A stretch of DNA of 64,000 nucleotides from Candidatus Edwardsbacteria bacterium (GCA_018821925.1 JAHJLF010000030.1:5851-69850), one strand, 5' to 3'. Positions 13,437 through 43,783 are shown, counted from the first letter of the stretch. Numbers and translations: made by a program. Notes: generated by a model not told the origin, from the letters alone.

Positions 13437-13497
13437 AAAAAGAGAGCCCGGAGGCTCCCTTTAAAGATCGTTGTATTAATAGAATATCAGCGGCGGA

Positions 13498-13854: not shown

Positions 13855-14014
13855 CAGCTCTCCATGATTGATATATGGAACTATCTGCCGCCCCTTAAGC
13901 AGGACATCAGTATATAACAATAATTTTTATAAAGTCAAGCTTTTTTTAATACGATCAATATCCGCCCGGAACGTCTGCTGTATGAAGTTGTTTCCGAAGC
14001 CATGGCTTTTACCA

Positions 14015-14043
14015 TTGACAGAGGGGATAAAAAGCAATAATAT
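14015..14043 (+). promoter_or_regulatory. sigma70-type promoter
   Basis: TTGACA - 17 bp - TAATAT upstream of M42 paralog 3. Confidence 0.7.
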
Positions 14044-14109
14044 TAACCATTACGCCCTAGGTTAATAAATATTTATAAAAAAAGATAACCCTTTACAAGG
14101 AATTATTTA

Positions 14110-16348: not shown

Positions 16349-17689
16349 ATGAACCAACAAATACAAGCGCTGTGGGCCCAGTCCCAGGACAGGATCAAGG
16401 AACGGATAGGTTCCCAGAGTTTTGACACCTGGATAAAGCCTCTGACCGCCCTGACGGTTGGCGAGGACAGCCTGACCCTCAAGGTTCCCAACCACTTTTT
16501 TGTGGAATGGCTGGGGCAGCATTACCTTAATATGATGAAAGAGGTGGTCTCGGATATTTTTCATAAGCCCCTTTCCATAGTCCTGGTCCCTCCGGTGGGA
16601 GAAACCCAGGCCGCCGCCCGTCAAAAACCGGAGAGAACCGAATTCGTCCCGGCCCAGCCGACCAGCGAGAGCGGCCTCCGGGAGAGATATATCTTCGATA
16701 CCTTCGTCATAGGAAAAAGCAACGAGTTCGCCTACGCCACCGCTTTCGCCACCGCCCAGGATCCCGGCAAACTGTACAACCCTCTGTTCATCTACGGGGG
16801 GGTGGGGCTGGGAAAGACTCATCTGATGCAGGCCATTGGCCATTTCACCAAGCGCAAGAGGCCAAAGGCCCGGGTGCTGTATATTCCGGCCGAGAATCTG
16901 ATGAACGACTTGGTCTATGCCATTCAGAACCGCAAGATGCTGGAGTTCAAGAACCGTTATCGTTCGCTGGATATTCTGCTGCTGGACGACGTCCAATTCC
17001 TGTCCGAAAAATCCGGCCTGCAGGAGGAGATATTTCATACTTTCAACTCGCTGTATGACGCCCGCAAACAAATCGTCCTGACCTCCGACCGGCCGCCCAA
17101 GGATATCTCTCATCTGGAGGAGCGCTTGGTATCCCGCTTTCAAAGCGGCCTGGTGGCCGACATCCAGGCTCCGGATCTAGAGACCCGGGCGGCTATTCTC
17201 AAAAAGAAGGCCGAGCTGGACGGCCTCTCCATCCCCAACGATGTCATCTATTTCATCGCCGCTTCGGTGAAATCCAACATCCGTGAGCTTGAAGGGGCAT
17301 TGATAAGAGTGGTGGCTTTCTCCTCGGTGTCGGACCAGGAGCTGACGGTTGATTTTGCCCGGGAGGTCCTCAAGAACATTATCTCCCAAAAATCCCGCCT
17401 GATATCCATCGAGCTTATACAGAAAATAGTGGCCAACTACTATTCCATCCCCGAAGAGGCTCTCAAGTCAAAAAGGCGGATCAAAAAGCTGGTGCTGCCC
17501 AGGCAGCTGGCCATGTACCTAAGCCGGGAGCTAACCGCGGCCTCACTCAACGATATCGGCAACCGCTTCGGCGGAAAGGACCATACCACGGTGCTGCATG
17601 CCATATCCAAGATAAAGAAAATGATAGCCTCAGACGATGAGATAACCTCCCAGGCCGAGAGGATAACTGAGTTGATCAACGGTGGATAG
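16349..17689 (+). CDS. dnaA: Chromosomal replication initiator DnaA
   Basis: YNPLFIYGGVGLGKTHL, LLLDDVQF, NIRELEGAL, FGGKDHTTVLHA. Confidence 0.99.
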   Translation: MNQQIQALWAQSQDRIKERIGSQSFDTWIKPLTALTVGEDSLTLKVPNHFFVEWLGQHYLNMMKEVVSDIFHKPLSIVLVPPVGETQAAARQKPERTEFVPAQPTSESGLRERYIFDTFVIGKSNEFAYATAFATAQDPGKLYNPLFIYGGVGLGKTHLMQAIGHFTKRKRPKARVLYIPAENLMNDLVYAIQNRKMLEFKNRYRSLDILLLDDVQFLSEKSGLQEEIFHTFNSLYDARKQIVLTSDRPPKDISHLEERLVSRFQSGLVADIQAPDLETRAAILKKKAELDGLSIPNDVIYFIAASVKSNIRELEGALIRVVAFSSVSDQELTVDFAREVLKNIISQKSRLISIELIQKIVANYYSIPEEALKSKRRIKKLVLPRQLAMYLSRELTAASLNDIGNRFGGKDHTTVLHAISKIKKMIASDDEITSQAERITELINGG

Positions 17690-17933
17690 AATATTAATTT
17701 CTTTATTTTAACCCACCTGCCTGTTGACCACTGTTGACAACACCTCCAGATATCAACAGCTGATCAAAAACATATCCCCAGGATATACATTCTTTAATTT
17801 TTTCAACAGCATCGCTTTATATCAAACCGTCAACAATATCAAGATTTACTATTGACTTTTATTATAATTTAGATATATCATATATTAGTTCTTAAGTATA
17901 AATTTAAAACCAGAAATTTGGAGCCGGTATCAA
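17690..17933. other. AT-rich dnaA-dnaN intergenic region with degenerate DnaA boxes (oriC part 2 / unwinding element)
   Basis: Very AT-rich; TGTTGACAA, ATATCAACA, ATATCCCCA, TTTTCAACA are 2-mismatch boxes. Confidence 0.65.
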
Positions 17934-19043
17934 ATGAAATTTTCCGTTAACCAGGAGAAACTTTTCACCTGCCTACAGAGCCTGATTGGGGTGGTGCCGA
18001 CTAAGAGCACTTTTCCGGTTCTGAACAATATCCTGATAGAGGCTAACAACAATAAACTGAAATTATCGGCCACCGATCTGGAGATAGCGGCTGTGACCCA
18101 GATAGAGGCCCAAACCGCCAGCAACGGTTCCATCACCGTGCCGGCCAAGCAATTCTTCGAGATAATCAAACAGCTGCCGCCATTAAATGTGGATTTTGAG
18201 GTCACCGGCAATAAAGTAACCATCAAATGCGACCGCAGCCGCTTCAATATCATCGGCCTGCCCAAGGAGGACTTTCCTAAGATACCGGAGATCAGTAAGG
18301 AAAAGAGCGTCAAACTTGGCAGCGGAATACTGCAGAACATCATCAAGAAGACCCTATTCGCGGTGTCCACCGACAGCTCCCGTCCCGACCTGTGCGGGGT
18401 ATTCCTGCAGATGAGCGGCGACAAACTTAAAGTTGTCACCACCGACGCCCACCGGCTGGCCATGCTGGAGACCATGATCCCGCCTATCTCCCAGAACAGC
18501 GAGCTGCTGTTGTCTCCTAAGGGCCTGAACATCGTCAATCGGATGCTGCCCGGCTCGGATACCGAGATCACCCTGCGGTTTGATGACAGCTATTCTCAGT
18601 TCAGTTTTGAGGACACCCAAGTCTATGCCCGGCATATCGAGGGCCCCTACCGGGATTACGAGAAGGCCATCCCTAAGACCAACAAAAAGACCCTGACCGT
18701 CAACGTGGACCTGCTGACCGCGGCGGTGCGCCGGGTGGCTATATTGTCCGATACCTTTACCCATCAAATCAGGCTTTCCTTAAAGGCCGACAGCATAGAG
18801 CTCTCCAGCCAGACGGTGGATATCGGCGAGGCCAGAGAGACCATCGCCGCAGTGTTCAAGGGCGAGGATATGGAGATAGGATACAATGCCAGCTACCTGC
18901 TGGACATCATCAAGAACGTGGATTCCGAGGAGATGATCTGCTCCCTGAACACCTCATTGTCGGCCGCCCTGATCAATCCGGCCAAGCAGGCTGAGGACTA
19001 TAGCCTGATGTACCTGCTGATGCCCATCAGGCTTCCGGAATAG
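17934..19043 (+). CDS. dnaN: DNA polymerase III beta sliding clamp
   Basis: SATDLE, VTTDAHRLA, IGYNASYLLD, YLLMPIRL C-terminus; follows dnaA. Confidence 0.98.
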   Translation: MKFSVNQEKLFTCLQSLIGVVPTKSTFPVLNNILIEANNNKLKLSATDLEIAAVTQIEAQTASNGSITVPAKQFFEIIKQLPPLNVDFEVTGNKVTIKCDRSRFNIIGLPKEDFPKIPEISKEKSVKLGSGILQNIIKKTLFAVSTDSSRPDLCGVFLQMSGDKLKVVTTDAHRLAMLETMIPPISQNSELLLSPKGLNIVNRMLPGSDTEITLRFDDSYSQFSFEDTQVYARHIEGPYRDYEKAIPKTNKKTLTVNVDLLTAAVRRVAILSDTFTHQIRLSLKADSIELSSQTVDIGEARETIAAVFKGEDMEIGYNASYLLDIIKNVDSEEMICSLNTSLSAALINPAKQAEDYSLMYLLMPIRLPE

Positions 19044-31393: not shown

Positions 31394-31888
31394 CTATTTC
31401 TTTCCGGCCAGCACCATCTTCCTGGTATATGGTATCAGCCCTCCGGCGTCAATGATGGCCTGCCGGGCCTGAGGCAGGGGAACGATGGGAAATTCTTTCC
31501 CCGTTGTCACGTTCCGGACGTTCCCACCCTCAACCACCAGTTCGTCGCCCTCACTGGCCTCGATGGTCGGGCAGATCACCATGTACAGGCCCACGTTGAT
31601 GGAGTTCTGCAGGAATATCCGGGAAAAATTCTTGGCGATCACCTTCAGGCCCCAGCCCACCAGGCAGGAGGCGGCCTGTTCCCGGGAGGAGCCGCAGCCG
31701 AAATTCTTGTCGGCCACGATGAAGCTGCCGGGCTCGATCTGCTTGGATTTCAGCTTCTGGTTGAACGCGGCGTCGTCCACGAAGGCGAACTGGGGGGTCT
31801 CGGTGGGGAGAACCGTGGCCATAAAGCGGCCGGGATAGATGATGTCGGTGGAGATATCGGCGCCCAGTTTCAATACTACTTTACCCAT
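31394..31888 (-). CDS. LeuD/HacB-like aconitase-family small subunit
   Basis: DISTDIIYPGR, NFGCGSSREQA, FSRIFLQNSIN.G. Confidence 0.93.
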   Translation of the reverse strand: MGKVVLKLGADISTDIIYPGRFMATVLPTETPQFAFVDDAAFNQKLKSKQIEPGSFIVADKNFGCGSSREQAASCLVGWGLKVIAKNFSRIFLQNSINVGLYMVICPTIEASEGDELVVEGGNVRNVTTGKEFPIVPLPQARQAIIDAGGLIPYTRKMVLAGKK

Positions 31889-31890
31889 GA

Positions 31891-33330
31891 TTATTTCCTC
31901 CCTTTCTTTTTAAGACCCCGAGCCTGTCGAGGGGCGGCTTTTTTCACGGTCTTCTTGGCCGGTCTTTTGGCCACAACTTTTTTCTTGGCCTTGGGCTTAA
32001 CGGTTTTGATCTTGGGCCTTTTCACAGAGACCTTGGGGGCCGGGGCCACGGTGCGGGGATCGGTGATCTCTCCGGTGATGGCCGAGGCCGCGGCGGTGGC
32101 CGCCGAGCTCAGGTAGACCTCGGCGTTGGGATTGCCCATCCGCCCCTTGAAATTCCTGTTAGTTGTGGCCAGGGCCTTGTCGCCATCGGCCAGAGCCCCC
32201 TGGTGTATGCCCAGGCAGGGGCCGCAGCCGGAGTTCATCACCACCGCGCCGGCCTTCATGAATATTTCCACATAACCCTTCTTCAAAGCCTGCTGGTAGA
32301 TACGGGTGGAGGCCGGGAACACCAGCATCCGGACGCTGCGGGCCACTTTCTTGCCTTTTAAGATTCCGGCGGCTATGGCCAGGTCATCCAGACGGCCGTT
32401 GGTGCAGGAGCCGATCACGATCTGCTGGATCTTGATTCCCTTGGCGGCGCCCACCGGCCTGACATTGTCAACGGTGTGTGGGAAGGCGATTTGGGGCTCC
32501 AGTTTTGAAACGTCGATCTCCACCACCTGCTCATAAACAGCGTCGGCATCCGGGCCGAACAGTTCGGGGATGTTCTTGACCCCGGCTTCCTTTTTCAGGT
32601 AGCGCACGGTCTCGGCATCCGGCGGGACGATGCCGCCGGTGGCTCCGGCCTCAACGGTCATATTGCACAGCACCAGCCGGCCGGAGGTGGACATCTTTCT
32701 GATGGTCTCGCCGTGAAACTCTATCACCTTGAAGTTGGCGCCCTCGGCGGTCAGTTTTCCGACTAGGTGCAGAATGATGTCCTTGGGCTCGACGTATTTG
32801 GGAAGCGTCCCGTTGACCACCACCTTGATGGTCCCCGGCACCTCCACGTTCAGTATCTTGCCCAGGGCCCAGACCGCGGCCATCTCGGTGGCCCCGATGC
32901 CGAAGGAGAAGGCTCCCAAGGCTCCGTGGCTGGTGGTGTGGCTGTCGGTGCCGACGATTACCTGGCCCGGCAGGTCGTAGCCGCTCTCGGGAAGGATCTG
33001 GTGGCAGATGCCGCCCTCGTCGCCCCGGATGTCGTGGAACTTGGTGATGCCCTGCTTGGCCACGAACTCGCGGATCTTCTTCTGGTTCCCGGCGGTCTTA
33101 GAGCTCTCGGCCGGCACCCGGTGGTCGAAGATGATGGCGATCTTAGAAGGATCCCAGACCTTGGCTTCGATCCCGGTGTCCTTGTAGATCTCGTTGAATT
33201 GGTTGATCACCAGCGCGCCGTTCTCGTGGGACATGGCCAGGCTGACCTTGGGCTCGACCACATCGTTCACTTTGACCGATGCCTGGCCGACGGCCTTGGC
33301 CAGGATCTTTTGGACCATTGTCATTCCCAT
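31891..33330 (-). CDS. LeuC/HacA-like aconitase-family large subunit with Lys-rich C-terminal tail
   Basis: DHRVP, GTDSHT, IGSCTNGR, GCGPCLG, TNRNF.GRMG; final 51 aa are strongly basic. Confidence 0.95.
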   Translation of the reverse strand: MGMTMVQKILAKAVGQASVKVNDVVEPKVSLAMSHENGALVINQFNEIYKDTGIEAKVWDPSKIAIIFDHRVPAESSKTAGNQKKIREFVAKQGITKFHDIRGDEGGICHQILPESGYDLPGQVIVGTDSHTTSHGALGAFSFGIGATEMAAVWALGKILNVEVPGTIKVVVNGTLPKYVEPKDIILHLVGKLTAEGANFKVIEFHGETIRKMSTSGRLVLCNMTVEAGATGGIVPPDAETVRYLKKEAGVKNIPELFGPDADAVYEQVVEIDVSKLEPQIAFPHTVDNVRPVGAAKGIKIQQIVIGSCTNGRLDDLAIAAGILKGKKVARSVRMLVFPASTRIYQQALKKGYVEIFMKAGAVVMNSGCGPCLGIHQGALADGDKALATTNRNFKGRMGNPNAEVYLSSAATAAASAITGEITDPRTVAPAPKVSVKRPKIKTVKPKAKKKVVAKRPAKKTVKKAAPRQARGLKKKGRK

Positions 33331-33378
33331 TACTTAACTCCTATGTAAAATGATAGTGTATTTTGTAAATAATAAGCG

Positions 33379-34068
33379 CTATAAATTTGACTTAAATGAG
33401 GGATAATGCCTTCTTTGCTCAAAGAGGTTATTATCTTTCTTAGCAAGTTCAGCGACCTGCGTCCCCCGTAGTGTTAATTTACATGTTTTTAAATCGTCTT
33501 TTTTGTAAGTAATCAAACCATTTTGTTCAAGAACGTCAATATCTTCTAAAAATACCGGATCATTTCTATAAGCATCAACTAAAGTTGGCCATTCTTGTGG
33601 ATTAAGGAACAATTCTGAAAGAACTCTTCGATGTCCCTCGCTGTATGCGATTCTATGTATCTCAGATGTTTGGAGGAGTTCTACCACGCGTTGTTTTTTA
33701 CTACCAGCAGTTGGCCCGATTTCCCGTATGATTTCTTCTGCTAGTTTTTTATTTAGTGTCTCAATATCCGTTTTAGATGCGGAACGCTCACCGAGGGTAT
33801 ATTTCTGTTCAAGATACTTAGAATAATAGCTATCTTCCTGCATTTCTGGGCGAAATTTTGTTTGTAGCATAAAAATGCTTAATAGAAATAAAGGTACATT
33901 AATGATAGAGGCAATAACTAATAGACCCGAAGCCCAGCTGGGGCTATTAATCTGTATTGCAGCAAATAAATAAATCCCGTCAACAATAATTAGTCCCGAA
34001 AGCCATGCAGCTAGTAATTGTATAGGTTTAGTTACTTTTTCGGGAAGAATGCGTGTGTTGTTTTTCAT
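33379..34068 (-). CDS. AT-rich hypothetical membrane protein (2 TM + possible winged helix)
   Basis: 229-aa ORF with markedly low GC; hydrophobic N-terminal segments; C-terminal 'LEQNGLI...LTLRG'. Confidence 0.7.
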   Translation of the reverse strand: MKNNTRILPEKVTKPIQLLAAWLSGLIIVDGIYLFAAIQINSPSWASGLLVIASIINVPLFLLSIFMLQTKFRPEMQEDSYYSKYLEQKYTLGERSASKTDIETLNKKLAEEIIREIGPTAGSKKQRVVELLQTSEIHRIAYSEGHRRVLSELFLNPQEWPTLVDAYRNDPVFLEDIDVLEQNGLITYKKDDLKTCKLTLRGTQVAELAKKDNNLFEQRRHYPSFKSNL

Positions 34069-34124
34069 AAAGTAAAGCTATTATTTTAATATTCTTCACT
34101 TTGGAGGTCATTGGTTATAATATC

Positions 34125-35312
34125 TCAGATCGCAGCCTTTTCCTTCATGGCCGTGATCTGTTCCGCCGTGTAGCCCAACTGGGTAAGGATCTCGTTTTGG
34201 TGCTGGCCCAAAGTCGGGGGCGGGGCGTCGATTGAAGCCGGGGTGGCCGAGAACTTGGCCGACAGGTTGAACAGCTTCAGCTCGCCCAGGTCCGGGTCCT
34301 TGATGCTTTCGATGGTCTTGCGGTATTTCACCTGCTCGGCGGCCAGGGCCTTCTCTAAGCTGAAGATGTCGCCGGTGGGGATGCCCTTGGCGTTCAGCGC
34401 CTCCACCCAATAGTCGGTGGTCTGCTGTTTAAGCTTGGCCTCCAGCAGGGGGGTCAGTTCTTTTCGGTTCTTCTTGCGGGTATCCCGCTCCTGGAACCGG
34501 GGATCGGTCAGCAGTTCCGGCACGCCCAGCACGGTGGCCAGATCCTCCCACTGTTTCTGCTGGTTGGCCGCGATGTTGACGAAGCCGTCCTTGGTCACAA
34601 ACATGCCCGATGGCGCGGCGGTGAAATTGTCGTTGCCCATAGCCACCGGCTGCTGTCCGCCGATCAGCAGATTGGCCGCCACCCAGCCCATCAGGGGCAT
34701 GATGGAGTCCAAAAGGGCGATGTCTATGAACTGGCCCTCGCCGGTCTTCTCCCGGTAATACAGGGCGGCCATGATGGCGAAGGCGGCATTGAGGCCCCCC
34801 ACCGTATCGCACACCGGGAAGCCAGCCCTAAGTGGGTGCAGGCGCTCGTCGCCGTTGACGTCCATCACCCCGGACAGGCCCTGGATGATCTGGTCGTAGG
34901 CCGGCTTGAAGGCGTCGGGCCCGGCCTGGCCGAACCCGGAGATGGCGCAGTAGACTATTTTCGGATTTATCTTTTTGATCTCGGCATAGGAGAAGCCCAA
35001 ACGGTCCATCACGCCGGGACGGAAATTCTCCACCACCACGTCGGCGGTCTTTATAAGCTTACGGAAGATCTCCTTGGCCTCTTCGGCCTTCAAATTAAGC
35101 GTAATGGATTTCTTGTTGGCGTTCTGGGCCAGGAACGAGGTTCCCATCAACTTTTGATTCAGGGCCGGAACCGCGCCCAGCTTGCGGGCCAGGTCGCCGC
35201 CCTCGGGGTTCTCGATCTTGATCACCTCGGCCCCCAACAGGGCCAGGTGCATGGTGGAGAAGGGCCCGGACAGGACGTTGGTCATGTCCAGCACCCGGAT
35301 GTTATTCATCAT
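34125..35312 (-). CDS. CaiB/BaiF (family III) CoA-transferase domain, currently in frame with the upstream lyase
   Basis: RVLDMTNVLSGP, GAEVIKIE, ADVVVENFRPG, YDQIIQG; own ATG at 35312 preceded by GAGG. Confidence 0.9.
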   Translation of the reverse strand: MMNNIRVLDMTNVLSGPFSTMHLALLGAEVIKIENPEGGDLARKLGAVPALNQKLMGTSFLAQNANKKSITLNLKAEEAKEIFRKLIKTADVVVENFRPGVMDRLGFSYAEIKKINPKIVYCAISGFGQAGPDAFKPAYDQIIQGLSGVMDVNGDERLHPLRAGFPVCDTVGGLNAAFAIMAALYYREKTGEGQFIDIALLDSIMPLMGWVAANLLIGGQQPVAMGNDNFTAAPSGMFVTKDGFVNIAANQQKQWEDLATVLGVPELLTDPRFQERDTRKKNRKELTPLLEAKLKQQTTDYWVEALNAKGIPTGDIFSLEKALAAEQVKYRKTIESIKDPDLGELKLFNLSAKFSATPASIDAPPPTLGQHQNEILTQLGYTAEQITAMKEKAAI

Positions 35313-36230
35313 TTTTTTCGGCCTCGGCTTTATAAGTGAGCCGGACTTGAGCACGGCGCCCGGCAATTCGCGGTTAAAGAACACGGAAACCTCCTGAGCG
35401 ACATCCAGCAGGCGGAACAGGTCGATGTCGGTCCGGAGCTCGGCCCGCTGCAGGGAGTGGACGAAATCCTCGGTGCCGACGTTCCCGGCCGCCACCTTGG
35501 TGAAGGGGCATCCCCCAAGTCCGCCCACCGCCGTCTCGATGTACTTCACTCCGGCGTTGATGGCGGCATAGCAGTTGGCCATTCCCAACCCATAAGTATT
35601 GTGGAAATGGCAGGCCAGTTCCACCTTGGGATCCATCTTCCGGATGGCGGAGAACAGCCGCTCCACCTGCTGGGGATTGGCGTGCCCGGCGGTGTCGGCC
35701 AGGCTGATGTTCCTGATCCCGGCCTCCAGGTATTTTTTGACCATGGCCAGCACCTTGTCTTCAGGAATGGCCCCGTCGAAGCCGCAGCCGAAGGCCGACT
35801 GCACCGAGGCCTGGACCTTCTTGCCGGCGTCCTGGGCCTTTTTAGCCATAGACAGGATCTGGCCCATGGCCTTGGTCGGGCTCATGCCGGTGTTCTTCTG
35901 GCTGTGGGTCTCGGAGGCCGAGACGCCCATGCAGAACATCTCCACCCCGCAGGCCAGCCCCCGCTCGAAACCCTTTTCGTTGAGCACCAACCCGGATAGG
36001 ACGGCCTCCGGCCTCTTTTTGCCGTTCTTGGCATAGTGCTCGAACAGGGCGTCGGTGTCGGCCATCTGGGGCACCTTCACCTGATGGACGAAGGAGCCCA
36101 CCTGGATGATGTCCACCCCGGAACCCATCAGATCGTCGATCCATTTGATCTTGACGTCCGTAGGCACCGGCTGTTTTTCGATCTGCAGACCGTCCCGCAG
36201 GCCCACCTCGTGAATATAAATTTCAGACAT
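35313..36230 (-). CDS. HMG-CoA lyase / citramalyl-CoA lyase-like (DRE-TIM) domain
   Basis: EVGLRDGLQ, SLADTAG, ACHFHNTYG, GGLGGCPF, GNVGTED. Start placed at 36230; no stop before the CoA-transferase. Confidence 0.9.
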
Positions 36231-36273
36231 AATTTTTAATATTATAATTTGTGGTTGGTGTACTCCGCTGCCG

Positions 36274-36375
36274 GTCATTCCCGCGCAGGCGGGAATCCAT
36301 AGAAAGGCCTGGATTCCTGCTTCCGCAGGAATGACAACCCGTGAATTGTAGGGGCGCATCGCGATGCGCCCCTAC
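36274..36375. repeat. Two REP-like elements
   Basis: GTCATTCCCGCGCAGGCGGGAATCCA...TGGATTCCTGC..GCAGGAATGAC and GTAGGGGCGCATCGCGATGCGCCCCTAC. Confidence 0.8.
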
Positions 36376-36385
36376 ATGGTTTGTT

Positions 36386-37504
36386 TTATAATTTTTTGGC
36401 GATGGCCTCGGCCATTTCCAGGGTCTTGTTGGTGCCACCCATGTCGTAGGTTTTAACCTTGCCCTCCTTGATCACCTCGGCGGTGGCCTTTTCTATCTTG
36501 TCGGCTTTCTCGGTCTCGCCCAGCCAGGTCAGCATCATTTTGGCCGCCAGAATGGTGGCGATGGGGTTGCACTTGTACATCCCGGCGTATTTGGGTGCCG
36601 AGCCGTGGGTGGGTTCGAATACCGCCAGTTTTTCGCCGATGTTGCCGGAGCAGCCGAAGCCCAGGCCGCCCACCATCTGGGCGCACAGGTCGGAGACGAT
36701 GTCGCCGAACATATTGGTGGCCACCAGCACCTCGTAGTTCATGGGGTTCTTCAGCAGCCACATGCAGATGGCGTCGATGTTGGCGTCGTCGCACTGGATG
36801 CCGGGGTAATCCTTGGCCACTTCCTTGCCGATCTCCAGGAACAGCCCCTCGGTGGCCCGCACCACGTTGGCCTTGTGGATAATGGTCACCTTCTTGCGGC
36901 CGTATTTCTTGGCGTATTCGAAGGCCGCCCGGATGATCCGCTCCGAACCCTTGCGGGTGTTGATCTTGCAGGTGATGGCGTACTGGTCCAGGGCCACATC
37001 CTTGAAGGCGGCGAAGCCCTTGGCGTTCTTCAGCAGGACGTCTTTGACCTCCTGGGGCACCGGGGAAAATTCCACCCCGGCGTACAGGTCCTCGGTGTTC
37101 TCCCGGAACACCACCAGGTCGATGCCCTCCTTGTAATTGATGGGATTGCCGGGGAAAGCCCTGCAGGGGCGCAGGCAGGTGTACAGGTCGAACAGCTGGC
37201 GCATCCGGACGATGGGCGAGCGGTAGACCATGCCCTTGCCCTGCAGCTCGGGAACCAGCTCCTTCTCGGCGGCCTTGACCGGCTTGGAGGTGATGGCGCC
37301 GAACATGGCGGCGTCAACCTTGCCCAACAGGTCAATGGTCCTTTGGGGGAAGGAATCGCCCTCCTTGCACCAGAACTCCCAACCGATGTCGCCGTGGATG
37401 TACTCGGCATCCAGCTTGACCTTGTCCAGCACTATCTTGGCGGCTTCCAGGGCCTCGATCCCGATGCCGTCGCCCGGCAACCAGGCTATCTTGTACTTGG
37501 CCAT
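36386..37504 (-). CDS. Beta-decarboxylating dehydrogenase (isopropylmalate/homoisocitrate/isocitrate family)
   Basis: LPGDGIG, FRENTEDLY, HKANV, NMFGDIVSD, FEPTHGSAPK. Confidence 0.93.
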   Translation of the reverse strand: MAKYKIAWLPGDGIGIEALEAAKIVLDKVKLDAEYIHGDIGWEFWCKEGDSFPQRTIDLLGKVDAAMFGAITSKPVKAAEKELVPELQGKGMVYRSPIVRMRQLFDLYTCLRPCRAFPGNPINYKEGIDLVVFRENTEDLYAGVEFSPVPQEVKDVLLKNAKGFAAFKDVALDQYAITCKINTRKGSERIIRAAFEYAKKYGRKKVTIIHKANVVRATEGLFLEIGKEVAKDYPGIQCDDANIDAICMWLLKNPMNYEVLVATNMFGDIVSDLCAQMVGGLGFGCSGNIGEKLAVFEPTHGSAPKYAGMYKCNPIATILAAKMMLTWLGETEKADKIEKATAEVIKEGKVKTYDMGGTNKTLEMAEAIAKKL

Positions 37505-37715
37505 TTGAATAACTCCTTATGGTAATAGTGATTTACGTTGACGTGGTGTTGGAATTGGTATTTTACCTCAAAAAAAATACTGCGTCAAGCCAAAACAGAA
37601 ATTACTTTGGGATTAATTTATCAGGGTCGACCATATAACCGGTCTCGTTATCAGCAGCGTCATCCAAACATGCAGTTTCCTAGACATAAAAAAGCCCTCC
37701 AACAATAGAGCAATA

Positions 37716-37744
37716 AAAAGCCCCGCATAAAAAGCGGGGCTTTT
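37716..37744 (-). terminator. Intrinsic terminator after the thiolase
   Basis: AAAAGCCCCGC-ataaaaa-GCGGGGCTTTT. Confidence 0.8.
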
Positions 37745-37769: not shown

Positions 37770-38972
37770 TCAGACCCTCTCGATCACCATTGCAATACCC
37801 TGTCCCACCCCAACACACATGGTGCACAGCGCCCTCTTTAGATTGCTTTTCTGCAATTGGAGGGAGGCGGAGACAAGAATTCTGGCGCCGCTCATACCCA
37901 ACGGATGACCAAGGGCGATGGCCCCACCCAGGGGGTTGATCCGGGCATCGTTATCGGCCAGACCCAATTCCCGGATACAGCCCAGCGCCTGTGCGGCAAA
38001 GGCTTCGTTGATTTCCAAAATGTCCATATCATTTAGCGTCAGTTTCAGCCGATCCAACAGTTTTTTTGTCGCCGGAACCGGTCCCATTCCCATTATCCTG
38101 GGGGGGACCCCGGCCGTGCTCATTCCCAGGATCTTGGCCAGGGGGGTCAGGTGGTATTTTTTTAAGGCACTCCCGGATGCCACCAGCAATGCCGCCGCCC
38201 CGTCGTTAATCCCTGAAGAGTTGCCGGCGGTGATCGTTCCTTGTGGGCGGGTTATCGGCTTAAGCTCCCCTAATTTTCCCAAGCTGACCTTCCGGGGGTG
38301 CTCATCCCTGTCAATAATTATAGGATCGCCCTTGCGCTGCGGGATATATACAGGGATGATCTCTCTTGATAATGAGCCGTCATTCTGCGCTATCTGCGCT
38401 TTCTCCTGGCTCCAGAAGGCAAATCTATCCTGGTCCTCCCGGCTGATCCCGTATTCGGTGGCGATGTTCTCGGCCGTTTCGATCATGGATTCAGTGCCGA
38501 ATCTTTTTTCAAACGACTGGTTGACGAACCTCCACCCGATGGTGGTGTCATATAGCTCGATTTTCCGGGAGAACGCTTCGGCCGCTTTCCCCATCACAAA
38601 CGGAGCCCGGGACATGCTTTCCACGCCGCCGGCCACGATCAGATCCGCCTCTCCGGCCCGGATGAATCTGGCTGCAGTGCCCACGGCATCCATTCCGGAT
38701 CCGCACAGACGGTTCACTGTCAGCCCCGATACGGTTTCCGGCAGGCCGGCCAGCAGCAGCGCCATCCGGGCAACGTTCCGGTTGTCCTCCCCGGCCTGGT
38801 TGGCGCAGCCCAGTATCACATCATCGAGCGACGGCCAATCGACGCCCCGGTTGGCATCGACCAGCGTTTTCAGGGGAATTGCCGCCAGATCGTCAGCCCT
38901 CACCGATGAAAGAGCCCCCCCGTACTTTCCTACCGGGGTCCTGACTGCGGCGCAGATGAAAACGTCTTGCAT
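37770..38972 (-). CDS. pcaF: 3-oxoadipyl-CoA thiolase (PcaF/PaaJ type)
   Basis: EDNRNVARMALLLAGLP, NRLCGSG, YDTTIGWRFVN, GHPLGMSG, CVGVGQG. Confidence 0.88.
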   Translation of the reverse strand: MQDVFICAAVRTPVGKYGGALSSVRADDLAAIPLKTLVDANRGVDWPSLDDVILGCANQAGEDNRNVARMALLLAGLPETVSGLTVNRLCGSGMDAVGTAARFIRAGEADLIVAGGVESMSRAPFVMGKAAEAFSRKIELYDTTIGWRFVNQSFEKRFGTESMIETAENIATEYGISREDQDRFAFWSQEKAQIAQNDGSLSREIIPVYIPQRKGDPIIIDRDEHPRKVSLGKLGELKPITRPQGTITAGNSSGINDGAAALLVASGSALKKYHLTPLAKILGMSTAGVPPRIMGMGPVPATKKLLDRLKLTLNDMDILEINEAFAAQALGCIRELGLADNDARINPLGGAIALGHPLGMSGARILVSASLQLQKSNLKRALCTMCVGVGQGIAMVIERV

Positions 38973-38978
38973 AGATAT

Positions 38979-40337
38979 TTATTTCAAATATGGTTTTATG
39001 TGCCTGAACCCGCTCAGGGCCGCTTCGGACAGGAGGTCTATCTCCTTCTGGGTCACTACGGTGGAGAACACACAGGAACAGGAGTTGATGATTATCACGC
39101 CCTTTTGGTAAAGATGCTCCAGGAACAGATTGATGATCTTCTTGGCCTTTTCATCCTCGTAGCTCTCACGGTAGGTGGTTGGCGGGTTCTCCCGGAAATG
39201 GATCTTGAACATGGACCCCTCCCCGGTGATGCAGATGGGCAGGCCGGCGACCTGGGCGGCCTCGAAGATCTGTTTTCGGGCAATCTGGGCGGTAACATTC
39301 AGCTTATTCACCGCCTGGCGGTCGAACATCTCCATGGCAACCCTTCCGGCCGTCATCGACACCGGATTGGCCGAAAAGGTTCCGGACAGGGGAAATCGGA
39401 AGCTGTTGTGGCCCGGGTCAAGCACGCTCATGACGTCGTCGCGTCCGGCAAAGGCCCCGATCGGAAAGCCGCCGCCGATGATCTTCCCCAGCGAAGTGAG
39501 GTCCGGCGCCACGGTGTAATTGCCCTGAGCGCCTTGGTAGTTGACCCTGAAACAGATAACCTCGTCGAAAGCCAGCAAGGCCCCGTTCTGGCGGGTCCAG
39601 GCATGGATCGCTTCGACGAATTCCTGGCTGGCTTTTATCATCCCTATCCGGTGGGGGATGGGATCGACAATGACGCAGGCGATCTCCCCGGCATATCGGT
39701 CAAGAATTTTAATCGTTCTTTCGATGTCGTTGAATGGATAAATGACCACGTCGTCAAGGACGCCTTGGGGAGTGCCGTACACGTTCGGCACCTTGTTCGG
39801 CAGGTCCGGGTTGCCCCAGTTCGATGGGTTGGCGCTCTGGCTGGTCTCGGCACAGTCGTAACTGCCGTGGTATCCGCCCTCCGCCTTGGCGATCTTGGGC
39901 TTGCCGGTAAAGGCCCTGGCGGTCTTGATCATGGCCATGACCGCTTCGGTGCCGGAATTTACAAAACGTATCTTCTGAAAGCCGGGGACCCGATTGCACA
40001 AAAGTTCGGCCAACTGGATCTCAACCTCGGTCCCAATGGTGAAGGCGGTGCCCCTCCGTATCTGGGCGCAGACGGCCTCGACTATGGCCGGATGCGCGTG
40101 TCCATGGATGAGCGAGGCGATATTATTGGCGAAATCCACATGCTTTACTCCGTTGATGTCGGTAACATAGCATCCCGAAGCGCTGGAAACATAGAACGGA
40201 TGGGGCTTGCGGTAGACCAGATTGCGGCTGACTCCGCCCGGCAGGCACTCGCAGGCCCTTTTATACAAGGCTTCCTCGGTGTTGGTTACGGCATTGCCGT
40301 CATTTAATCCGTCAGTCATCCTAAAACCCTCCGACAT
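38979..40337 (-). CDS. Class III PLP aminotransferase, GSA-aminomutase-like (candidate beta-amino acid / beta-aminoacyl-CoA transaminase)
   Basis: PGGVSR, FVNSGTEA, GYHG, FDEVI, SLGKIIGGGFP (PLP Lys), GTFSANP. Confidence 0.88.
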   Translation of the reverse strand: MSEGFRMTDGLNDGNAVTNTEEALYKRACECLPGGVSRNLVYRKPHPFYVSSASGCYVTDINGVKHVDFANNIASLIHGHAHPAIVEAVCAQIRRGTAFTIGTEVEIQLAELLCNRVPGFQKIRFVNSGTEAVMAMIKTARAFTGKPKIAKAEGGYHGSYDCAETSQSANPSNWGNPDLPNKVPNVYGTPQGVLDDVVIYPFNDIERTIKILDRYAGEIACVIVDPIPHRIGMIKASQEFVEAIHAWTRQNGALLAFDEVICFRVNYQGAQGNYTVAPDLTSLGKIIGGGFPIGAFAGRDDVMSVLDPGHNSFRFPLSGTFSANPVSMTAGRVAMEMFDRQAVNKLNVTAQIARKQIFEAAQVAGLPICITGEGSMFKIHFRENPPTTYRESYEDEKAKKIINLFLEHLYQKGVIIINSCSCVFSTVVTQKEIDLLSEAALSGFRHIKPYLK

Positions 40338-40338
40338 T

Positions 40339-40992
40339 TTATTTGGTATGAAGCGGAACCGCCGTTATGCTCTGGAGAAAATCGAATTCCACGCCCGGCG
40401 CCATCTCCAAAACATGCAATCCGTCACTCCTCACTTCGATAACGGCGTATTCCGTGAATATCCTGTCGACCACCCCTTTGCCGGTAAGCGGGCAGGTGCA
40501 TTCTTTCACGATCTTCGCTTCCCCGGTTTTGGTGGTATGCTGGGTGATCACAAAAATGGTCTTGACGCCCTGGACCAGGTCCATGGCTCCGCCCACCGCC
40601 GGGATGGCATTGGGCTCCCCGGTAGACCAGTTGGCCAGGTCGCCGCCGCCCGAGATCTGGAAGGCCCCCAGCACGCAGATGTCAATATGCCCGCCCCGGA
40701 CCATGGCAAAACTGTCGGCATGGTGAAAATAGCAGGCGCCCTTTATGGCCGTCACCGACCTCTTTCCGGCGTTGATCAGCTCATCGTCCTCTTGGCCCGG
40801 CAGGGGGGAGGGCCCCACCCCCAGCAGGCCGTTCTCGGTATGGAACAGCACCTCGCTTCCTTCCGGAATGTAATTAGCAACCAGCTCCGGCAGTCCGATG
40901 CCTAGGTTGACATAAGAGCCGTCGGGTATGTTCTGGGCGACCTTCTGGGCCATCTGCTCGCGGGTCCATCCTTTTACGGCTTCACTTTTCAT
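40339..40992 (-). CDS. pcaJ: 3-oxoacid (3-oxoadipate-type) CoA-transferase beta subunit
   Basis: YVNLGIGLP, TENG (catalytic Glu), GGAMDLV. Confidence 0.85.
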   Translation of the reverse strand: MKSEAVKGWTREQMAQKVAQNIPDGSYVNLGIGLPELVANYIPEGSEVLFHTENGLLGVGPSPLPGQEDDELINAGKRSVTAIKGACYFHHADSFAMVRGGHIDICVLGAFQISGGGDLANWSTGEPNAIPAVGGAMDLVQGVKTIFVITQHTTKTGEAKIVKECTCPLTGKGVVDRIFTEYAVIEVRSDGLHVLEMAPGVEFDFLQSITAVPLHTK

Positions 40993-41699
40993 GGATATCT
41001 CTTGTTCTCTTTAAGGAGTTGGTTTTCACTGGCCGGATTGGGCACCGCCACCACCTTGCGCACGAAGATCCCCGGGGTGATCACTGCCTCGGGATCGATC
41101 TCGCCCACGGCAACGATGCGACCGGCCTGGACTATGGAGGATCGAGCGGCCATGCACATGATGGGGGAGAAGTTACGGGCCGTCTTATTATAAAGCAGAT
41201 TGCCGTAGCGGTCGGCGGTCTTGCATTTGATCAGGGCGAAATCGGCTGTTAGTCCGGGCTCCAGCAGGTAGGTCTTTCCGTCGAAGATCCTGGCCTCCTT
41301 GCCCTCGGCCAGCGGCGTGTTTACCGAGGTGGGGGTATAGAATGCGGGGATGCCGGCCCCTCCGGCCCTTATCCTTTCGGCCAGGGTTCCCTGGGGCACC
41401 AGCTCAAGCTCGATCTCCCCTTTGCAGTACAGCTCCGGGAAGACCACCGACTGGGCGGTTCGGGGGAAGGAGCAGATCATTTTTTTAACCTGGCGGTTCT
41501 CAATCAGGGCCGCCAGTCCAACATGACCGTTGCCGGTGTTGTTGCTGACCACTGTGAGATTTTTTGCCCCGTGGTCTATTAAGGCGTGTATCAGCTCGAT
41601 GGGGCTGCCGGCCTCGCCGAAGCCGGCTATCATTACCGTGGCCCCGTCAAAGATATCGGCCACCGCCTGGGCGGTAGATGTTACTATCTTATTGATCAT
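40989..41699 (-). CDS. pcaI: 3-oxoacid (3-oxoadipate-type) CoA-transferase alpha subunit
   Basis: DGATVMIAGFGEAGSP, SNNTGNG, CSFPR, PQGTLAERIRAGGAGIPAFYTPT. Confidence 0.85.
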   Translation of the reverse strand: MINKIVTSTAQAVADIFDGATVMIAGFGEAGSPIELIHALIDHGAKNLTVVSNNTGNGHVGLAALIENRQVKKMICSFPRTAQSVVFPELYCKGEIELELVPQGTLAERIRAGGAGIPAFYTPTSVNTPLAEGKEARIFDGKTYLLEPGLTADFALIKCKTADRYGNLLYNKTARNFSPIMCMAARSSIVQAGRIVAVGEIDPEAVITPGIFVRKVVAVPNPASENQLLKENKRYP

Positions 41700-43251
41700 G
41701 GTTGTTCGCGGCCAGGACCGTTGCGGTTAGGTCCGGCTTGTCCTGATGGGGCTTGGCCACGGATTCCTCCAGCCGCTTTTCAATGTCCGCCAACTCGTCC
41801 TCGTAGAAATGCTTGTCAGCGCCGTAGGGCTTCAGATTGGCGATGGTATTTTCTTTTTCGTCGTATTTTGCCAGGTAAACCTTGTCCATCCAGGCCATAT
41901 CCCGGGCCTCGTTGAACTTCAGGGCAAAAACGGTTTCGCCGTTTACCTCGACTGTCCCCAGCAGCGATATCTTACCAGCCGAGGAGGTCATGGTGATGTA
42001 TCTGGAGGGTCGGTTTATGGAAGCCAGGGAACGATATACCTTGCTGAACACCTTGTTTATGTCGGCCAGCGGCGCTGTGAAGTAGTGATGCTCGCCGGTG
42101 GGCCTGGCGCAATACATGGAGTGAAACCCTACCGAAAGCATGGCCAGCACGTTGCCCAGGTCGATCCAGTTCTGGGCCGAACGATCGACGTCCACTTCGC
42201 CTTTTTCGTTGGTGAACAGACTGATGTGATTCATAATGGGACTCTGGCTCTTGACGGTCGCGCCGTGCGCCTGTAATCTCCTGATGGCTGCAATAGTGCT
42301 GGGGTTGAGGATCTCCCTGGGGGTGGAGAAATGGGACATGAACGCCAGTTGGATGCCGTGATCCTTGAGTTTCCTGAACAATCCAAGCATCTGGTCGTAA
42401 TCCCGGGAAAGAATGAGCTCTGGATGGTATGTCAGAACGCGGGTGCCCAGGCGGACCGTCTTGATGTGCAGCAGTTCGGGATCCTCAATGATCGGGTTGA
42501 TGTATTCCGCAAAGCGATCAGCGGTCAGATAGCCGGCGTCGCCGCCGGTGATCAGGATGTCAGTCACCTCCTGGTGCTGTCTGAGGTATTGGTGTATCTG
42601 GCTAACGTCTTTCTGACAGAACATATCCTCATCGCCCCGGACCTGGGCGTGCCGGAAGCAGTAATTGCAGAAGGCAAAGCAATGCTGGGTCTGGATGTCG
42701 AAGATAAGCTGGCACTGGGGATACTTGTGCTGGCTGCCGTCGACGATCTCGACCTCCCCATCCCTGTTCCGGAAAGCCGGTTTGTTCAGTTTTTGCTTGC
42801 CGTCGTGGGGGTTGGTCTCCCTGATGTGATCCTTCACTACTTTTTGCCGCTGAGCCTCGGTTTGGGCGTTTAAGTAAGCCTGGGTTACATCGGAGCGTAT
42901 CATGCCGGGCTGGGGAAAAACCAACTGAAAGACGGAATCTTTTTCAAAATCCAGCCAGTTTATTGTGTTTAAAACGTGCCGGGTGGCCATAAAGCGGTAA
43001 ACCTCGATAAATAACTCCCGCTCCCGGATATCTCTTAACTCGATGCCGTTTTTTCGCAGTATTTCCACGATCTCCCGGAAACCCTCCAAGCCCACATACT
43101 GTGCTTTATCGTTGAATAAGATTTTTGTCTTCTCTCTAAACCCGGAGTATTGAGGATAGGCCGAATGCAGCCGGTTTAGTAAACCATCGGGCAGAAGATT
43201 TTCCTGCTGGACGACATCGCTAATTTCGCTGGAGAAAAAGAAGTGATTCAT
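41689..43251 (-). CDS. KamA-family radical SAM protein (putative PLP-dependent 2,3-aminomutase)
   Basis: HKYP, CFAFCNYCFR (CxxxCxxC), ILITGGD, RLGTRVL, SHFSTPRE, and SAGKIS at the position of the KamA PLP lysine (GGGGK). Confidence 0.85.
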   Translation of the reverse strand: MNHFFFSSEISDVVQQENLLPDGLLNRLHSAYPQYSGFREKTKILFNDKAQYVGLEGFREIVEILRKNGIELRDIRERELFIEVYRFMATRHVLNTINWLDFEKDSVFQLVFPQPGMIRSDVTQAYLNAQTEAQRQKVVKDHIRETNPHDGKQKLNKPAFRNRDGEVEIVDGSQHKYPQCQLIFDIQTQHCFAFCNYCFRHAQVRGDEDMFCQKDVSQIHQYLRQHQEVTDILITGGDAGYLTADRFAEYINPIIEDPELLHIKTVRLGTRVLTYHPELILSRDYDQMLGLFRKLKDHGIQLAFMSHFSTPREILNPSTIAAIRRLQAHGATVKSQSPIMNHISLFTNEKGEVDVDRSAQNWIDLGNVLAMLSVGFHSMYCARPTGEHHYFTAPLADINKVFSKVYRSLASINRPSRYITMTSSAGKISLLGTVEVNGETVFALKFNEARDMAWMDKVYLAKYDEKENTIANLKPYGADKHFYEDELADIEKRLEESVAKPHQDKPDLTATVLAANNHDQ

Positions 43252-43345
43252 GGGTTATCTCGGTTATGTTTATGATTATTGACTGTCGAAACCGTTGCCC
43301 GGGGCGGCGATTGGCCGGTTTATTCACGGGTCCCCTTGGGCAGGG

Positions 43346-43711
43346 TTAGGGCAATTTCTTTTTCCTCGGTATTTTCACCGGGCTTTTCCGGCATACCTTG
43401 TTCATCCTCAGGTGATCGTCGCTGACCATGCTGTCCTGGTTGGCCCATTGGGTGATATGCTTAAGAAGGATCGGGACGTATTCATTGGCGGCGGCGGCGG
43501 ACAGCCGGTAGTTGACCCATAGGGTGTCCCGTTTGTCCTCAACCAGTCCCGCATCCTTGAGCTGACGCAGGTGGCGGGAAACGCTGGGCTGGGAGATGCC
43601 CAGGACCGTGGTTAACTCATTTACGCTCCGGGGATTATCCTGAAGCATTTTGAGTATTCTAATCCGGTTCTTGTCCCCCAGGGCCTTGAACACCTTGACT
43701 AAATTTTTCAT
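43346..43711 (-). CDS. ArsR/SmtB-family transcriptional repressor
   Basis: FKALGDKNRIRIL, SQPSVSRHLRQLKDAGLV. Confidence 0.92.
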   Translation of the reverse strand: MKNLVKVFKALGDKNRIRILKMLQDNPRSVNELTTVLGISQPSVSRHLRQLKDAGLVEDKRDTLWVNYRLSAAAANEYVPILLKHITQWANQDSMVSDDHLRMNKVCRKSPVKIPRKKKLP

Positions 43712-43731: not shown

Positions 43732-43783
43732 TATATAGCTATATGGCTATATAGATGATATCAAAATACCGTCCGGTTGTCAA
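43732..43783 (-). promoter_or_regulatory. Promoter and palindromic operator of the ArsR-led operon
   Basis: Minus strand TTGACA (43783-43778) - 17 bp - TATCAT (43760-43755); inverted repeat TATATAGC-6 bp-GCTATATA (43732-43753) lies over the predicted start site. Confidence 0.7.

Follow-up and report, generated by a model that had tools for sequence, protein, structure and literature searches.

In the lower beta-ketoadipate pathway, as encoded by the IclR-pcaI-pcaJ-pcaF operon of Rhizobium etli plasmid p42e, 3-oxoadipate is activated by the two-subunit CoA-transferase PcaIJ and split into succinyl-CoA plus acetyl-CoA by the thiolase PcaF. One variant of lysine fermentation uses the 3-aminobutyryl-CoA aminotransferase Kat, a class-III enzyme of the HemL-like type whose substrates are exclusively CoA esters; in Cloacimonas and a Bacteroidetes genome, its gene adjoins a thiolase gene and the enzyme works with an AtoDA transferase (PMC3149608). 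An excess of kamA-like genes in a digester metagenome has also been noted and left unexplained (Perret et al. 2011, PMC3149608). Here we analyze a stretch of 64,000 nucleotides from a Candidatus Edwardsbacteria bacterium (GCA_018821925.1 JAHJLF010000030.1:5851-69850), referred to as the window, in which one minus-strand unit encodes a KamA-like radical S-adenosylmethionine (SAM) enzyme next to a 3-oxoacid CoA-transferase, a class-III aminotransferase and a PcaF-type thiolase. We hold with moderate confidence that this cassette is a catabolic operon complete in itself, whose substrate is an acidic alpha-amino acid, most probably L-2-aminoadipate; this would be turned into succinyl-CoA plus acetyl-CoA. 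The individual parts belong to known families; what is new is the gene combination, the likely substrate and the intermediate.

The unit comprises six open reading frames (ORFs) on the minus strand, from 43711 to 37770. An ArsR/SmtB-family winged-helix regulator (43346-43711, 121 amino acids) is followed by a divergent KamA-type radical-SAM/pyridoxal phosphate (PLP) enzyme (41689-43251, 520 amino acids), which we propose to be an acidic amino-acid (2-aminoadipate) 2,3-aminomutase. Next come subunit A (CoAT-A, PcaI/ScoA-type, 40989-41699, 236 amino acids) and subunit B (CoAT-B, PcaJ/ScoB-type, 40339-40992, 217 amino acids) of a 3-oxoacid CoA-transferase, and a class-III aminotransferase related to glutamate-1-semialdehyde (GSA) aminomutase (38979-40337, 452 amino acids, or 446 from the alternative start at 40319 in the NCBI gene call), proposed to be a 3-aminoadipate or 3-aminoadipyl-CoA:2-oxoacid transaminase. 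The last gene encodes a 3-oxoadipyl-CoA thiolase orthologue of the PcaF/PaaJ group (37770-38972, 400 amino acids). The KamA-like and CoAT-A genes overlap by 11 nt and the CoAT-A and CoAT-B genes by a 4-nt start/stop overlap; the gap between CoAT-B and the aminotransferase is 1 nt or 19 nt, depending on the aminotransferase start codon, and that between the aminotransferase and the thiolase is 6 nt. Because all junctions are short overlaps or gaps, translational coupling across the five enzyme genes is likely. The original prediction for this stretch had described such a tightly packed unit, and all six ORFs, their family assignments and a terminator at the end were recovered. It had also stated that genes for ring cleavage, lactone conversion and lysine fermentation are lacking. 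In a search that covered the called genes around the unit and, elsewhere in the window, 20 large ORFs but no smaller ones, we likewise found no kamDE, kdd, kce or kal and no ring-cleavage dioxygenase, cycloisomerase, decarboxylase or enol-lactonase gene.

The arrangement is conserved across several phyla. A scan with one genome per species found a relative of the aminomutase in 450 species-representative genomes. The best 80 genome loci, whose aminomutases are 65-76% identical to the window protein, were taken for neighborhood work, and a metagenome scan gave 80 more loci. Hosts of the best 80 are mostly metagenome-assembled genomes of Bacteroidales (Lentimicrobiaceae, bins labelled Rikenellaceae, Salinivirgaceae), and other host labels are Ignavibacteria, Aminicenantes, Elusimicrobia, Cloacimonadota, Acidobacteria, Balneolales, Edwardsbacteria and Deltaproteobacteria. 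The complete cassette is also carried by two cultured Marinilabiliales, Ancylomarina salipaludis and Labilibacter sediminis. Of the loci from genomes and metagenomes, 102 extend 5.7 kb or more past the start of the aminomutase gene; 99 of them have the genes in the order aminomutase, CoAT-A, CoAT-B, aminotransferase, thiolase, with median identities of 62-77% to the window proteins. Since the order is conserved to this extent, chance juxtaposition is excluded and the arrangement is far beyond chance; the gene set on which the original prediction was built is strongly conserved. Departures were found in L021 and L139, where the thiolase is missing at its position, and in two reduced variants. 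One of these (L155, 6793-11038) has the aminomutase, the aminotransferase and an Asparaginase_2 gene, and in the other (L161, 7834-9525) the aminomutase gene stands by itself, with LysR and AraC regulators and a transporter of the MFS family as neighbors. On account of these two variants, the aminomutase may also serve other contexts.

ORFs within 10 kb of the cassette in the 80 genome loci were clustered in a search for further conserved dehydrogenases, decarboxylases and transporters, and such additional members were rejected: no other gene family was common to more than 12 loci. This limit held for aromatic ring-cleavage and lactone families and for kamA, kamDE, kdd and kce alike. Because no other family exceeds it, the five enzyme genes are taken as the functional unit. 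Flanking genes, as scanned in Pfam, are mainly those of peptidases and housekeeping proteins. The original prediction counted ArsR as a member of the unit, and the gene does adjoin the operon here, but it was not found beside the cassette in other loci; 11 of these have a PuuR-like XRE-cupin regulator in its place and others none. ArsR is best viewed as a local regulator specific to the lineage of this genome. At 50% clustering the aminomutase family forms essentially one full-length cluster, and its next relatives are uncharacterized KamA-like proteins of sub-threshold score. The nearest sister cluster, P0124 (608 amino acids), lies outside any cassette, and since its gene context is unrelated it gives no functional hint.

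Several local additions were seen in the neighborhood of the cassette. Upstream of the aminomutase in some Bacteroidales loci (L013, L016, L018, L024, L027, L028, L036, L045, L046, L048, L128 and L130) lies a sodium:solute symporter gene (SSS, unspecific), a gene for a YafV-type omega-amidase (PRK10438, 255 bits; cutoff 249), or the two together; the amidase may indicate an amide substrate, or an amino donor or acceptor of the glutamine type. Right after the thiolase gene, L040, L068, L069, L078 and L080 encode a protein of about 210-235 amino acids that we read by eye as a beta-class carbonic anhydrase, which may point to a CO2-releasing step or may be mere local synteny. In L025, a 356-amino-acid gene (3508-4578) with a Fic motif read by eye (HPFYDGNGRTGR) lies between CoAT-B and the aminotransferase and looks like a mobile or toxin-type insertion in the cassette.

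The KamA-like protein is the least typical member of the cassette. It scored 72.9 bits with TIGR00238 against a cutoff of 199.2, with the match confined to residues 166-344, and no Pfam model matched at E ≤ 1e-5. The equivalog models for lysine, glutamate and arginine aminomutases gave 59-67 bits, among them 66.7 bits against a cutoff of 525 for lysine 2,3-aminomutase (LAM/AblA/EpmB, TIGR03820) and 59.2 bits against 650 for glutamate 2,3-aminomutase (TIGR04368); the protein fell below the cutoffs of the Lys, Glu, Arg and EpmB models. The LAM structure 2A5H was nonetheless matched by sequence in the core region (E=7e-13). A confident AlphaFold2 model built from 22 homologues (pLDDT 82.5, pTM 0.86) had 2A5H as its top Foldseek match, with E=1.7e-13 and a target-normalized TM score of 0.64 over about 430 columns, and the runners-up had E ≥ 4e-4. 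The model thus predicts a LAM-type fold at an identity to LAM of 16-18%. As the protein scores below the TIGR00238 cutoff and has no Pfam match, we file it as a divergent relative outside the curated KamA family, one that probably acts like KamA.

Based on the alignment to LAM, conserved motifs of its core are retained. The segment C191-x3-C195-x2-C198-F-R200, unchanged in 22 family members, pairs with LAM C125/C129/C132/R134, which places the CxxxCxxC motif named in the original prediction. The invariant D231 and GGDA at 236-239 correspond to LAM D165 and GGD, and the invariant Q336 corresponds to Q258, the Gln of the SAM region. The candidate PLP-lysine is the invariant K427 in the sequence SSAGK, picked out by a motif that recurs among KamA relatives; most full-length KamA-like relatives, P0225 and P0242 (both above the family cutoff) among them, have a conserved Gly-Lys at the aligned position. 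No sequence alignment to 2A5H, whether from profile or intermediate-sequence searches, extends beyond residue 322, short of Lys337. K427 is presumably the counterpart of Lys337, judged by motif, spacing and the LAM sequence.

The difference of most consequence lies at the residue that binds the epsilon-ammonium of lysine in LAM. With the alignment bridged by the intermediate relatives P0129, P0225 and P0242, the LAM segment IYQCD293LSLGLEHF aligns without gaps to MYCAR383PTGEHHYF of the window protein, so that Asp293 is replaced by Arg383, which is invariant across the aminomutase family. The counterpart of LAM Asp330 would be Thr/Ser420, placed only by its spacing from K427. Because the positively charged Arg383 sits where Asp293 binds the epsilon-ammonium of lysine, a substrate with an anionic distal group is favored over lysine. 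The replacement argues against lysine and for a distal carboxylate, in agreement with the acidic substrate that had been proposed. In glutamate 2,3-aminomutase, the positions of Asp293 and Asp330 reportedly hold Lys and Asn (Ruzicka & Frey 2007).

The thiolase exceeded the cutoffs of the pcaF equivalog TIGR02430 (657.5 bits against 597) and of PRK09050 (681.4 against 605). Its best solved relative is the Pseudomonas beta-ketoadipyl-CoA thiolase 6PCA (551 bits over the full length), whereas acetoacetyl-CoA thiolases gave about 335 bits or less. By equivalog score and closest structure, it is predicted to be a PcaF/PaaJ-type 3-oxoadipyl-CoA thiolase orthologue. CoAT-A scored 348 bits with TIGR02429 (cutoff 128.5) and CoAT-B 294.7 bits with TIGR02428 (cutoff 243.55); CoAT-A is 59.8% identical to the first gene (pcaI) of the Rhizobium etli operon, and Bacillus subtilis ScoA (3CDK) matched it with 230 bits. 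These values make the assignment of the lower enzymes to 3-oxoadipate firmer than when it was first put forward. The aminotransferase matched PF00202 and reached 352 bits with hemL, under the cutoff of 527. Its best solved relative, 6K8H (363 bits), is an omega-transaminase of Sphaerobacter thermophilus used on beta- and gamma-amino acids (PMC10589169), which suits the GSA-like class-III beta-transaminase of the original prediction. Other structures scored lower, with 220-245 bits for GSA aminomutases, 208 for the beta-transaminase 2YKU and 133 for 4-aminobutyrate aminotransferase. The enzyme appears nearer to beta-transaminases and GSA aminomutase than to 4-aminobutyrate aminotransferase, and a role on beta-amino acids is predicted. 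Public records name the aminomutase "hypothetical protein" or "L-lysine 2,3-aminomutase" and the aminotransferase "aspartate aminotransferase family protein" or "glutamate-1-semialdehyde 2,1-aminomutase".

A link to lysine came from the genes upstream of the cassette in four loci, two labelled Cloacimonadota (L067, L079) and two metagenome contigs (L092, L093). In these, genes for saccharopine dehydrogenase and lysine-ketoglutarate reductase (LKR) lie directly upstream on the same strand and head seven-gene units (L079 6324-18193; L067 1986-4796; L092 2426-6668; L093 5829-10205); the gaps around the upstream genes are 13 bp in L092. The first gene encodes a 439-amino-acid saccharopine dehydrogenase (Sacchrp_dh_C, 261 bits). 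The second encodes a protein of 429-439 amino acids whose best match in the Protein Data Bank is the LKR domain of human aminoadipate-semialdehyde synthase (AASS; 275 bits, full length). The two genes lead from lysine to 2-aminoadipate semialdehyde, one oxidation short of 2-aminoadipate. Downstream of the cassette, L079 has genes for an amino-acid permease, a 375-amino-acid Sacchrp_dh-family protein and an EamA transporter. The 375-amino-acid protein is nearest to Pyrococcus horikoshii PH1688 (3ABI, 227 bits), which we take to be L-lysine 6-dehydrogenase, and a 47%-identical homologue lies a few kb from the Aminicenantes cassette L020. A separate observation concerns the best plasmid match to the transferase, at 67% identity, on Tistrella mobilis pTM2 (L087, 337828-350532), where a DUF1338 protein, an aldehyde dehydrogenase and an aminotransferase are encoded nearby. 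DUF1338 is presumably the HglS family of lysine catabolism, which converts 2-oxoadipate, and the neighborhood is a possible further link of this transferase clade to C6 acids derived from lysine.

From these parts we predict the following pathway; its substrates, its reactions and the direction of flux are those that the family assignments suggest. The KamA-like enzyme, with [4Fe-4S], SAM and PLP, would shift the amino group of L-2-aminoadipate from C2 to C3, with Arg383 holding the distal carboxylate, and yield 3-aminoadipate. The GSA-like class-III aminotransferase would then pass the beta-amino group to a 2-oxoacid and form 3-oxoadipate, which the PcaIJ-type transferase would convert to 3-oxoadipyl-CoA with succinyl-CoA as donor. 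Finally, the PcaF-type thiolase would split 3-oxoadipyl-CoA into succinyl-CoA plus acetyl-CoA and so regenerate the CoA donor. An order in which CoA transfer comes first and 3-aminoadipyl-CoA is transaminated is equally plausible, because the characterized Kat takes only CoA esters. In either order the net reaction would be 2-aminoadipate + 2-oxoacid + CoA to succinate + acetyl-CoA + amino acid, and the 2-aminoadipate would be supplied from lysine via saccharopine and aminoadipate semialdehyde. Judging from the established reactions of PcaIJ and PcaF, 3-oxoadipate would be the only case in which the thiolase product, succinyl-CoA, is also the usual CoA donor of the transferase family. Because the thiolase would regenerate the donor with 3-oxoadipate, the five genes would be sufficient, which would also explain why they travel together. 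A full-text literature search found no paper with the term 3-aminoadipate and no description of a natural pathway that joins an aminomutase to the 3-oxoadipate enzymes. The sole match to "{beta}-aminoadipic", in a reference title, was read as a misprint for the alpha compound and set aside.

The choice of 2-aminoadipate, which was the substrate of the original prediction, is supported by the conserved gene order, the replacement of Asp293 by Arg, the PcaF-type thiolase and the saccharopine genes upstream in four loci. A number of points weigh against it. For a cassette of such wide distribution, 2-aminoadipate is a minor metabolite. An Arg in place of Asp293 leaves the chain length of the substrate unfixed and is also present in many uncharacterized KamA relatives, and the aminomutase chemistry itself is a prediction for a protein with low identity to LAM and a sub-threshold family score. 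The pcaI_scoA and pcaJ_scoB subfamily models, both of which were passed, do not separate PcaIJ from ScoAB. The saccharopine synteny comes from one lineage, with KamA-like genes that are 87-100% identical, so that the four loci count as about one independent observation, and around most cassettes the surrounding 10 kb are free of lysine genes. The link to lysine is also incomplete, because no gene for an aminoadipate-semialdehyde dehydrogenase (Aldedh) was seen in the Cloacimonadota-type loci.

The generic logic of aminomutase, beta-transaminase, CoA-transferase and thiolase, which the original prediction kept as an alternative for substrates such as Glu or Leu, suits any alpha-amino acid with a methylene group at C3. 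Either meso-diaminopimelate or 2-aminopimelate (leading to glutamyl- or glutaryl-CoA) or leucine or 2-aminobutyrate (leading to isobutyryl- or acetyl-CoA) could in principle be used. The nearest relatives of the KamA clade, all uncharacterized and below threshold at 50% clustering, leave room for such substrates, as do the SSS symporter and the YafV-like omega-amidase beside a subset of cassettes. We nevertheless consider another amino acid of this kind rather unlikely, in view of the PcaF-equivalog thiolase and PcaI-like transferase, which favor a C6 dicarboxylate, of Arg383, which counts against neutral side chains, and of the saccharopine synteny, which suits 2-aminoadipate better.

Glutamate has to be weighed separately, as Arg383 suits any distal carboxylate. 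In this route a glutamate 2,3-aminomutase would form beta-glutamate, which would be converted to 3-oxoglutarate and its CoA ester; 3-oxoglutaryl-CoA would then be cleaved to acetyl-CoA and malonyl-CoA, or decarboxylation to acetoacetate or acetoacetyl-CoA would lead to two acetyl-CoA. Beta-glutamate occurs in methanogens and anoxic sediments, glutamate is plentiful for protein-fermenting anaerobes, peptidase genes are frequent neighbors of the cassette, and the carbonic-anhydrase-like gene follows it in five loci. The enzymes themselves, however, point elsewhere. The KamA-like protein falls far short of the glutamate aminomutase equivalog, and the thiolase is a PcaF orthologue rather than an acetoacetyl-CoA thiolase. 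The cassette has no malonyl-CoA decarboxylase, and if malonyl-CoA served as the CoA donor, malonate would be left over as a dead-end product. The saccharopine genes of the Cloacimonadota-type loci indicate carbon derived from lysine, although glutamate is also a product of saccharopine dehydrogenase. On balance, we regard the glutamate route as rather unlikely.

A B12-independent route for lysine itself, similar to that of Kat, is improbable. It would run from beta-lysine through beta-lysyl-CoA and 3-oxo-6-aminohexanoyl-CoA to acetyl-CoA and 4-aminobutyryl-CoA, and it draws on the characterized HemL-like Kat, its specificity for CoA esters, its position by a thiolase gene with AtoDA, and the unexplained kamA-like genes of the digester metagenome (PMC3149608). 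The phyla of Kat also dominate among the cassette hosts. Several points count against it: Asp293 is replaced by Arg, the Asp330 position is Thr/Ser by spacing, the lysine 2,3-aminomutase equivalog gave 67 bits against 525, and upstream LKR and saccharopine dehydrogenase would compete for lysine instead of feeding this route. The termini of Kat (CLOAM0809), deduced from published primers, were missing from all of the 120 homologues nearest to the Cloacimonadota cassette aminotransferase and from the loci examined; compared by these termini alone, Kat is therefore at most a paralogue of the cassette enzyme. That the genes are chance neighbors, or that the KamA-like protein is no aminomutase, is next to negligible: its missing Pfam match and sub-cutoff KamA score, the aminomutase genes of L155 and L161, which stand without transferase or thiolase, and the cassette-free sister cluster P0124 would allow it, but the order shared by 99 of 102 loci in several phyla, the overlapping start and stop codons, the LAM fold and the retained cofactor motifs speak against it.

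The unit is flanked by plausible transcription signals. Upstream of the ArsR gene, a sigma-70-like promoter is predicted on the minus strand at 43755-43783 (TTGACA, 17 nt, TATCAT with a TG extension), where a consensus scan matched 11 of 12 positions, a match to consensus only. It is followed at about 43752-43731 by an AT-rich, partly palindromic sequence, ATATAGCCATATAGCTATATAA. The ArsR protein itself scored 87.8 bits with NF033788 (cutoff 55) and also matched PF01022. At the other end, an intrinsic terminator on the minus strand at 37711-37744 was read directly from the sequence as AAAA-GCCCCGC-TTTTTAT-GCGGGGC-TTTTTATTG; its G+C-rich hairpin and T-run occupy 37740-37711, just past the stop codon of the thiolase gene. 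A consensus scan for terminators gave only a weaker adjoining hairpin at 37711-37694. A second promoter-like site lies at 37588-37560, ahead of the next downstream gene.

The gene downstream belongs to a separate minus-strand transcription unit at 31394-37504. The unit encodes an Iso_dh protein similar to homoisocitrate and isopropylmalate dehydrogenases, a fusion of a 3-hydroxy-3-methylglutaryl (HMG)-CoA-lyase-like domain with a family-III (CaiB-type) CoA-transferase, a 229-amino-acid protein without a family match, and the large and small subunits of an archaeal-type LeuC/HacA-like enzyme of the aconitase family. The fusion is rare; its transferase half stands alone, at about 78-80% identity, in Zixibacteria, Latescibacteria and Eisenbacteria. 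In a Zixibacteria genome (L090) the lyase, the transferase and the large and small aconitase-family subunits are encoded consecutively by separate genes. The Iso_dh, lyase-transferase and aconitase genes were considered as part of the cassette and rejected, given the terminator and promoter-like site between the two units, their absence from the other loci and their occurrence as a module of their own in Zixibacteria. The module may be a CoA-dependent alkylmalate lyase module that replaces a LeuA/CimA-type synthase. If it handled acids of the homocitrate type, or made or consumed 2-oxoadipate, it could be combined with the cassette into a route by way of 2-oxoadipate from 2-oxoglutarate and acetyl-CoA to succinyl-CoA, acetyl-CoA and CO2, or the reverse. 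We consider this combination very doubtful; if true, it would bypass 2-oxoglutarate dehydrogenase or 2-oxoglutarate:ferredoxin oxidoreductase. Two features of this unit were recorded in passing. The first 43 codons of the ORF at 36359-34125 (window 36231-36376) encode IPAEAGIQ...IPACAGMT, which we take to be a peptide of the repeat-element type, and a perfect hairpin of 13 bp (TGTAGGGGCGCATCGCGATGCGCCCCTACA) spans 36347-36376; the true start is probably Met44 (36230), matching the NCBI gene call of 701 amino acids. The large aconitase-family subunit has a lysine-rich C-terminal tail of about 50 residues (KVSVKRPKIKTVKPKAKKKVVAKRPAKKTVKK..., 31891-32040), which is unusual for LeuC/HacA.

The window also matches contig JAHJSC010000002.1 of GCA_018830185.1. 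Apart from the two units, it is housekeeping in content, with dnaA/dnaN, aminoacyl-tRNA synthetases, LepA, signal peptidases and M42 peptidases. Since dnaA and dnaN adjoin each other (16349-19043), the window probably lies near the chromosomal replication origin; the cumulative GC skew climbs across most of it. Three M42 glutamyl-aminopeptidase paralogues stand in tandem at 10588-15114 and a subtilase gene at 1730-3490, which fits a proteolytic, amino-acid-fermenting lifestyle.

If the 2-aminoadipate pathway is correct, the KamA-like enzyme would be a 2-aminoadipate 2,3-aminomutase, the first of its activity, and 3-aminoadipate would be an intermediate absent from the literature that the full-text search covered. 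A function would be given to a branch of the KamA superfamily that is large, highly conserved and as yet without a name, and for which the annotation "lysine 2,3-aminomutase" would be wrong. The cassette would constitute a widespread, B12-independent anaerobic route for 2-aminoadipate derived from lysine. It would tie the catabolism of an amino acid, lysine, to the 3-oxoadipate enzymes in strict anaerobes, and pcaIJF genes in such organisms would therefore no longer be evidence of aromatics degradation. The cassette genomes, about 450 at species level (Bacteroidales, Cloacimonadota, Ignavibacteria, Aminicenantes and others), were recovered from digesters and sediments, and the pathway would therefore matter to models of protein and necromass fermentation. 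For biotechnology, its enzymes could serve work on beta-amino dicarboxylic acids and on C6 compounds related to adipate. The proposal is directly testable, because the two cultured Marinilabiliales isolates have the complete cassette.

Compared with the known systems, the cassette resembles the beta-ketoadipate pathway in its lower half. Its thiolase passes the PcaF cutoff, CoAT-A is about 60% identical to PcaI, and the relative order of transferase A, transferase B and thiolase is that of the Rhizobium etli operon. The differences are that the window unit lacks an IclR/PcaR regulator as well as genes for ring cleavage, lactonase or enol-lactone steps, that pcaJ and pcaF are separated by an aminotransferase gene and preceded upstream by one for an aminomutase, and that the cassette hosts are anaerobic fermenters, whereas the hosts of the beta-ketoadipate pathway are aerobic degraders of aromatics. 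The likeness to lysine fermentation with Kat extends to the HemL-like class-III aminotransferase encoded by a thiolase, the two-subunit CoA-transferase and the occurrence in Cloacimonadota and Bacteroidota. The logic is also alike, in that a beta-amino group would be transaminated off to give a beta-keto thioester for thiolysis. The Kat pathway, however, requires KamA, KamDE, Kdd and Kce, none of which was found among the scanned genes of the window, and its thiolase is of the acetoacetyl-CoA type, whereas that of the cassette is of the PcaF type.

The first enzyme finds its best and only strong structural match in the KamA family, represented by LAM (2A5H) and the glutamate and arginine 2,3-aminomutases. 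It shares with them CxxxCxxC and the following Arg, GGD, the Gln of the SAM region and a Gly-Lys at the expected place of the PLP-lysine, and the same chemistry is presumed. In contrast with LAM, it is longer by about 165 residues at the N-terminus and about 90 at the C-terminus, and it is encoded together with catabolic CoA enzymes instead of kamDE, kdd and kce. The last comparison is with lysine catabolism through saccharopine, whose first two enzymes, LKR and saccharopine dehydrogenase, are encoded upstream of the cassette in the Cloacimonadota-type loci. Past 2-aminoadipate, that pathway continues with an alpha-transaminase, the 2-oxoadipate dehydrogenase complex and glutaryl-CoA dehydrogenase or decarboxylase, whereas the cassette would replace these steps by an amino shift and thiolysis yielding succinyl-CoA plus acetyl-CoA, without oxidative decarboxylation.

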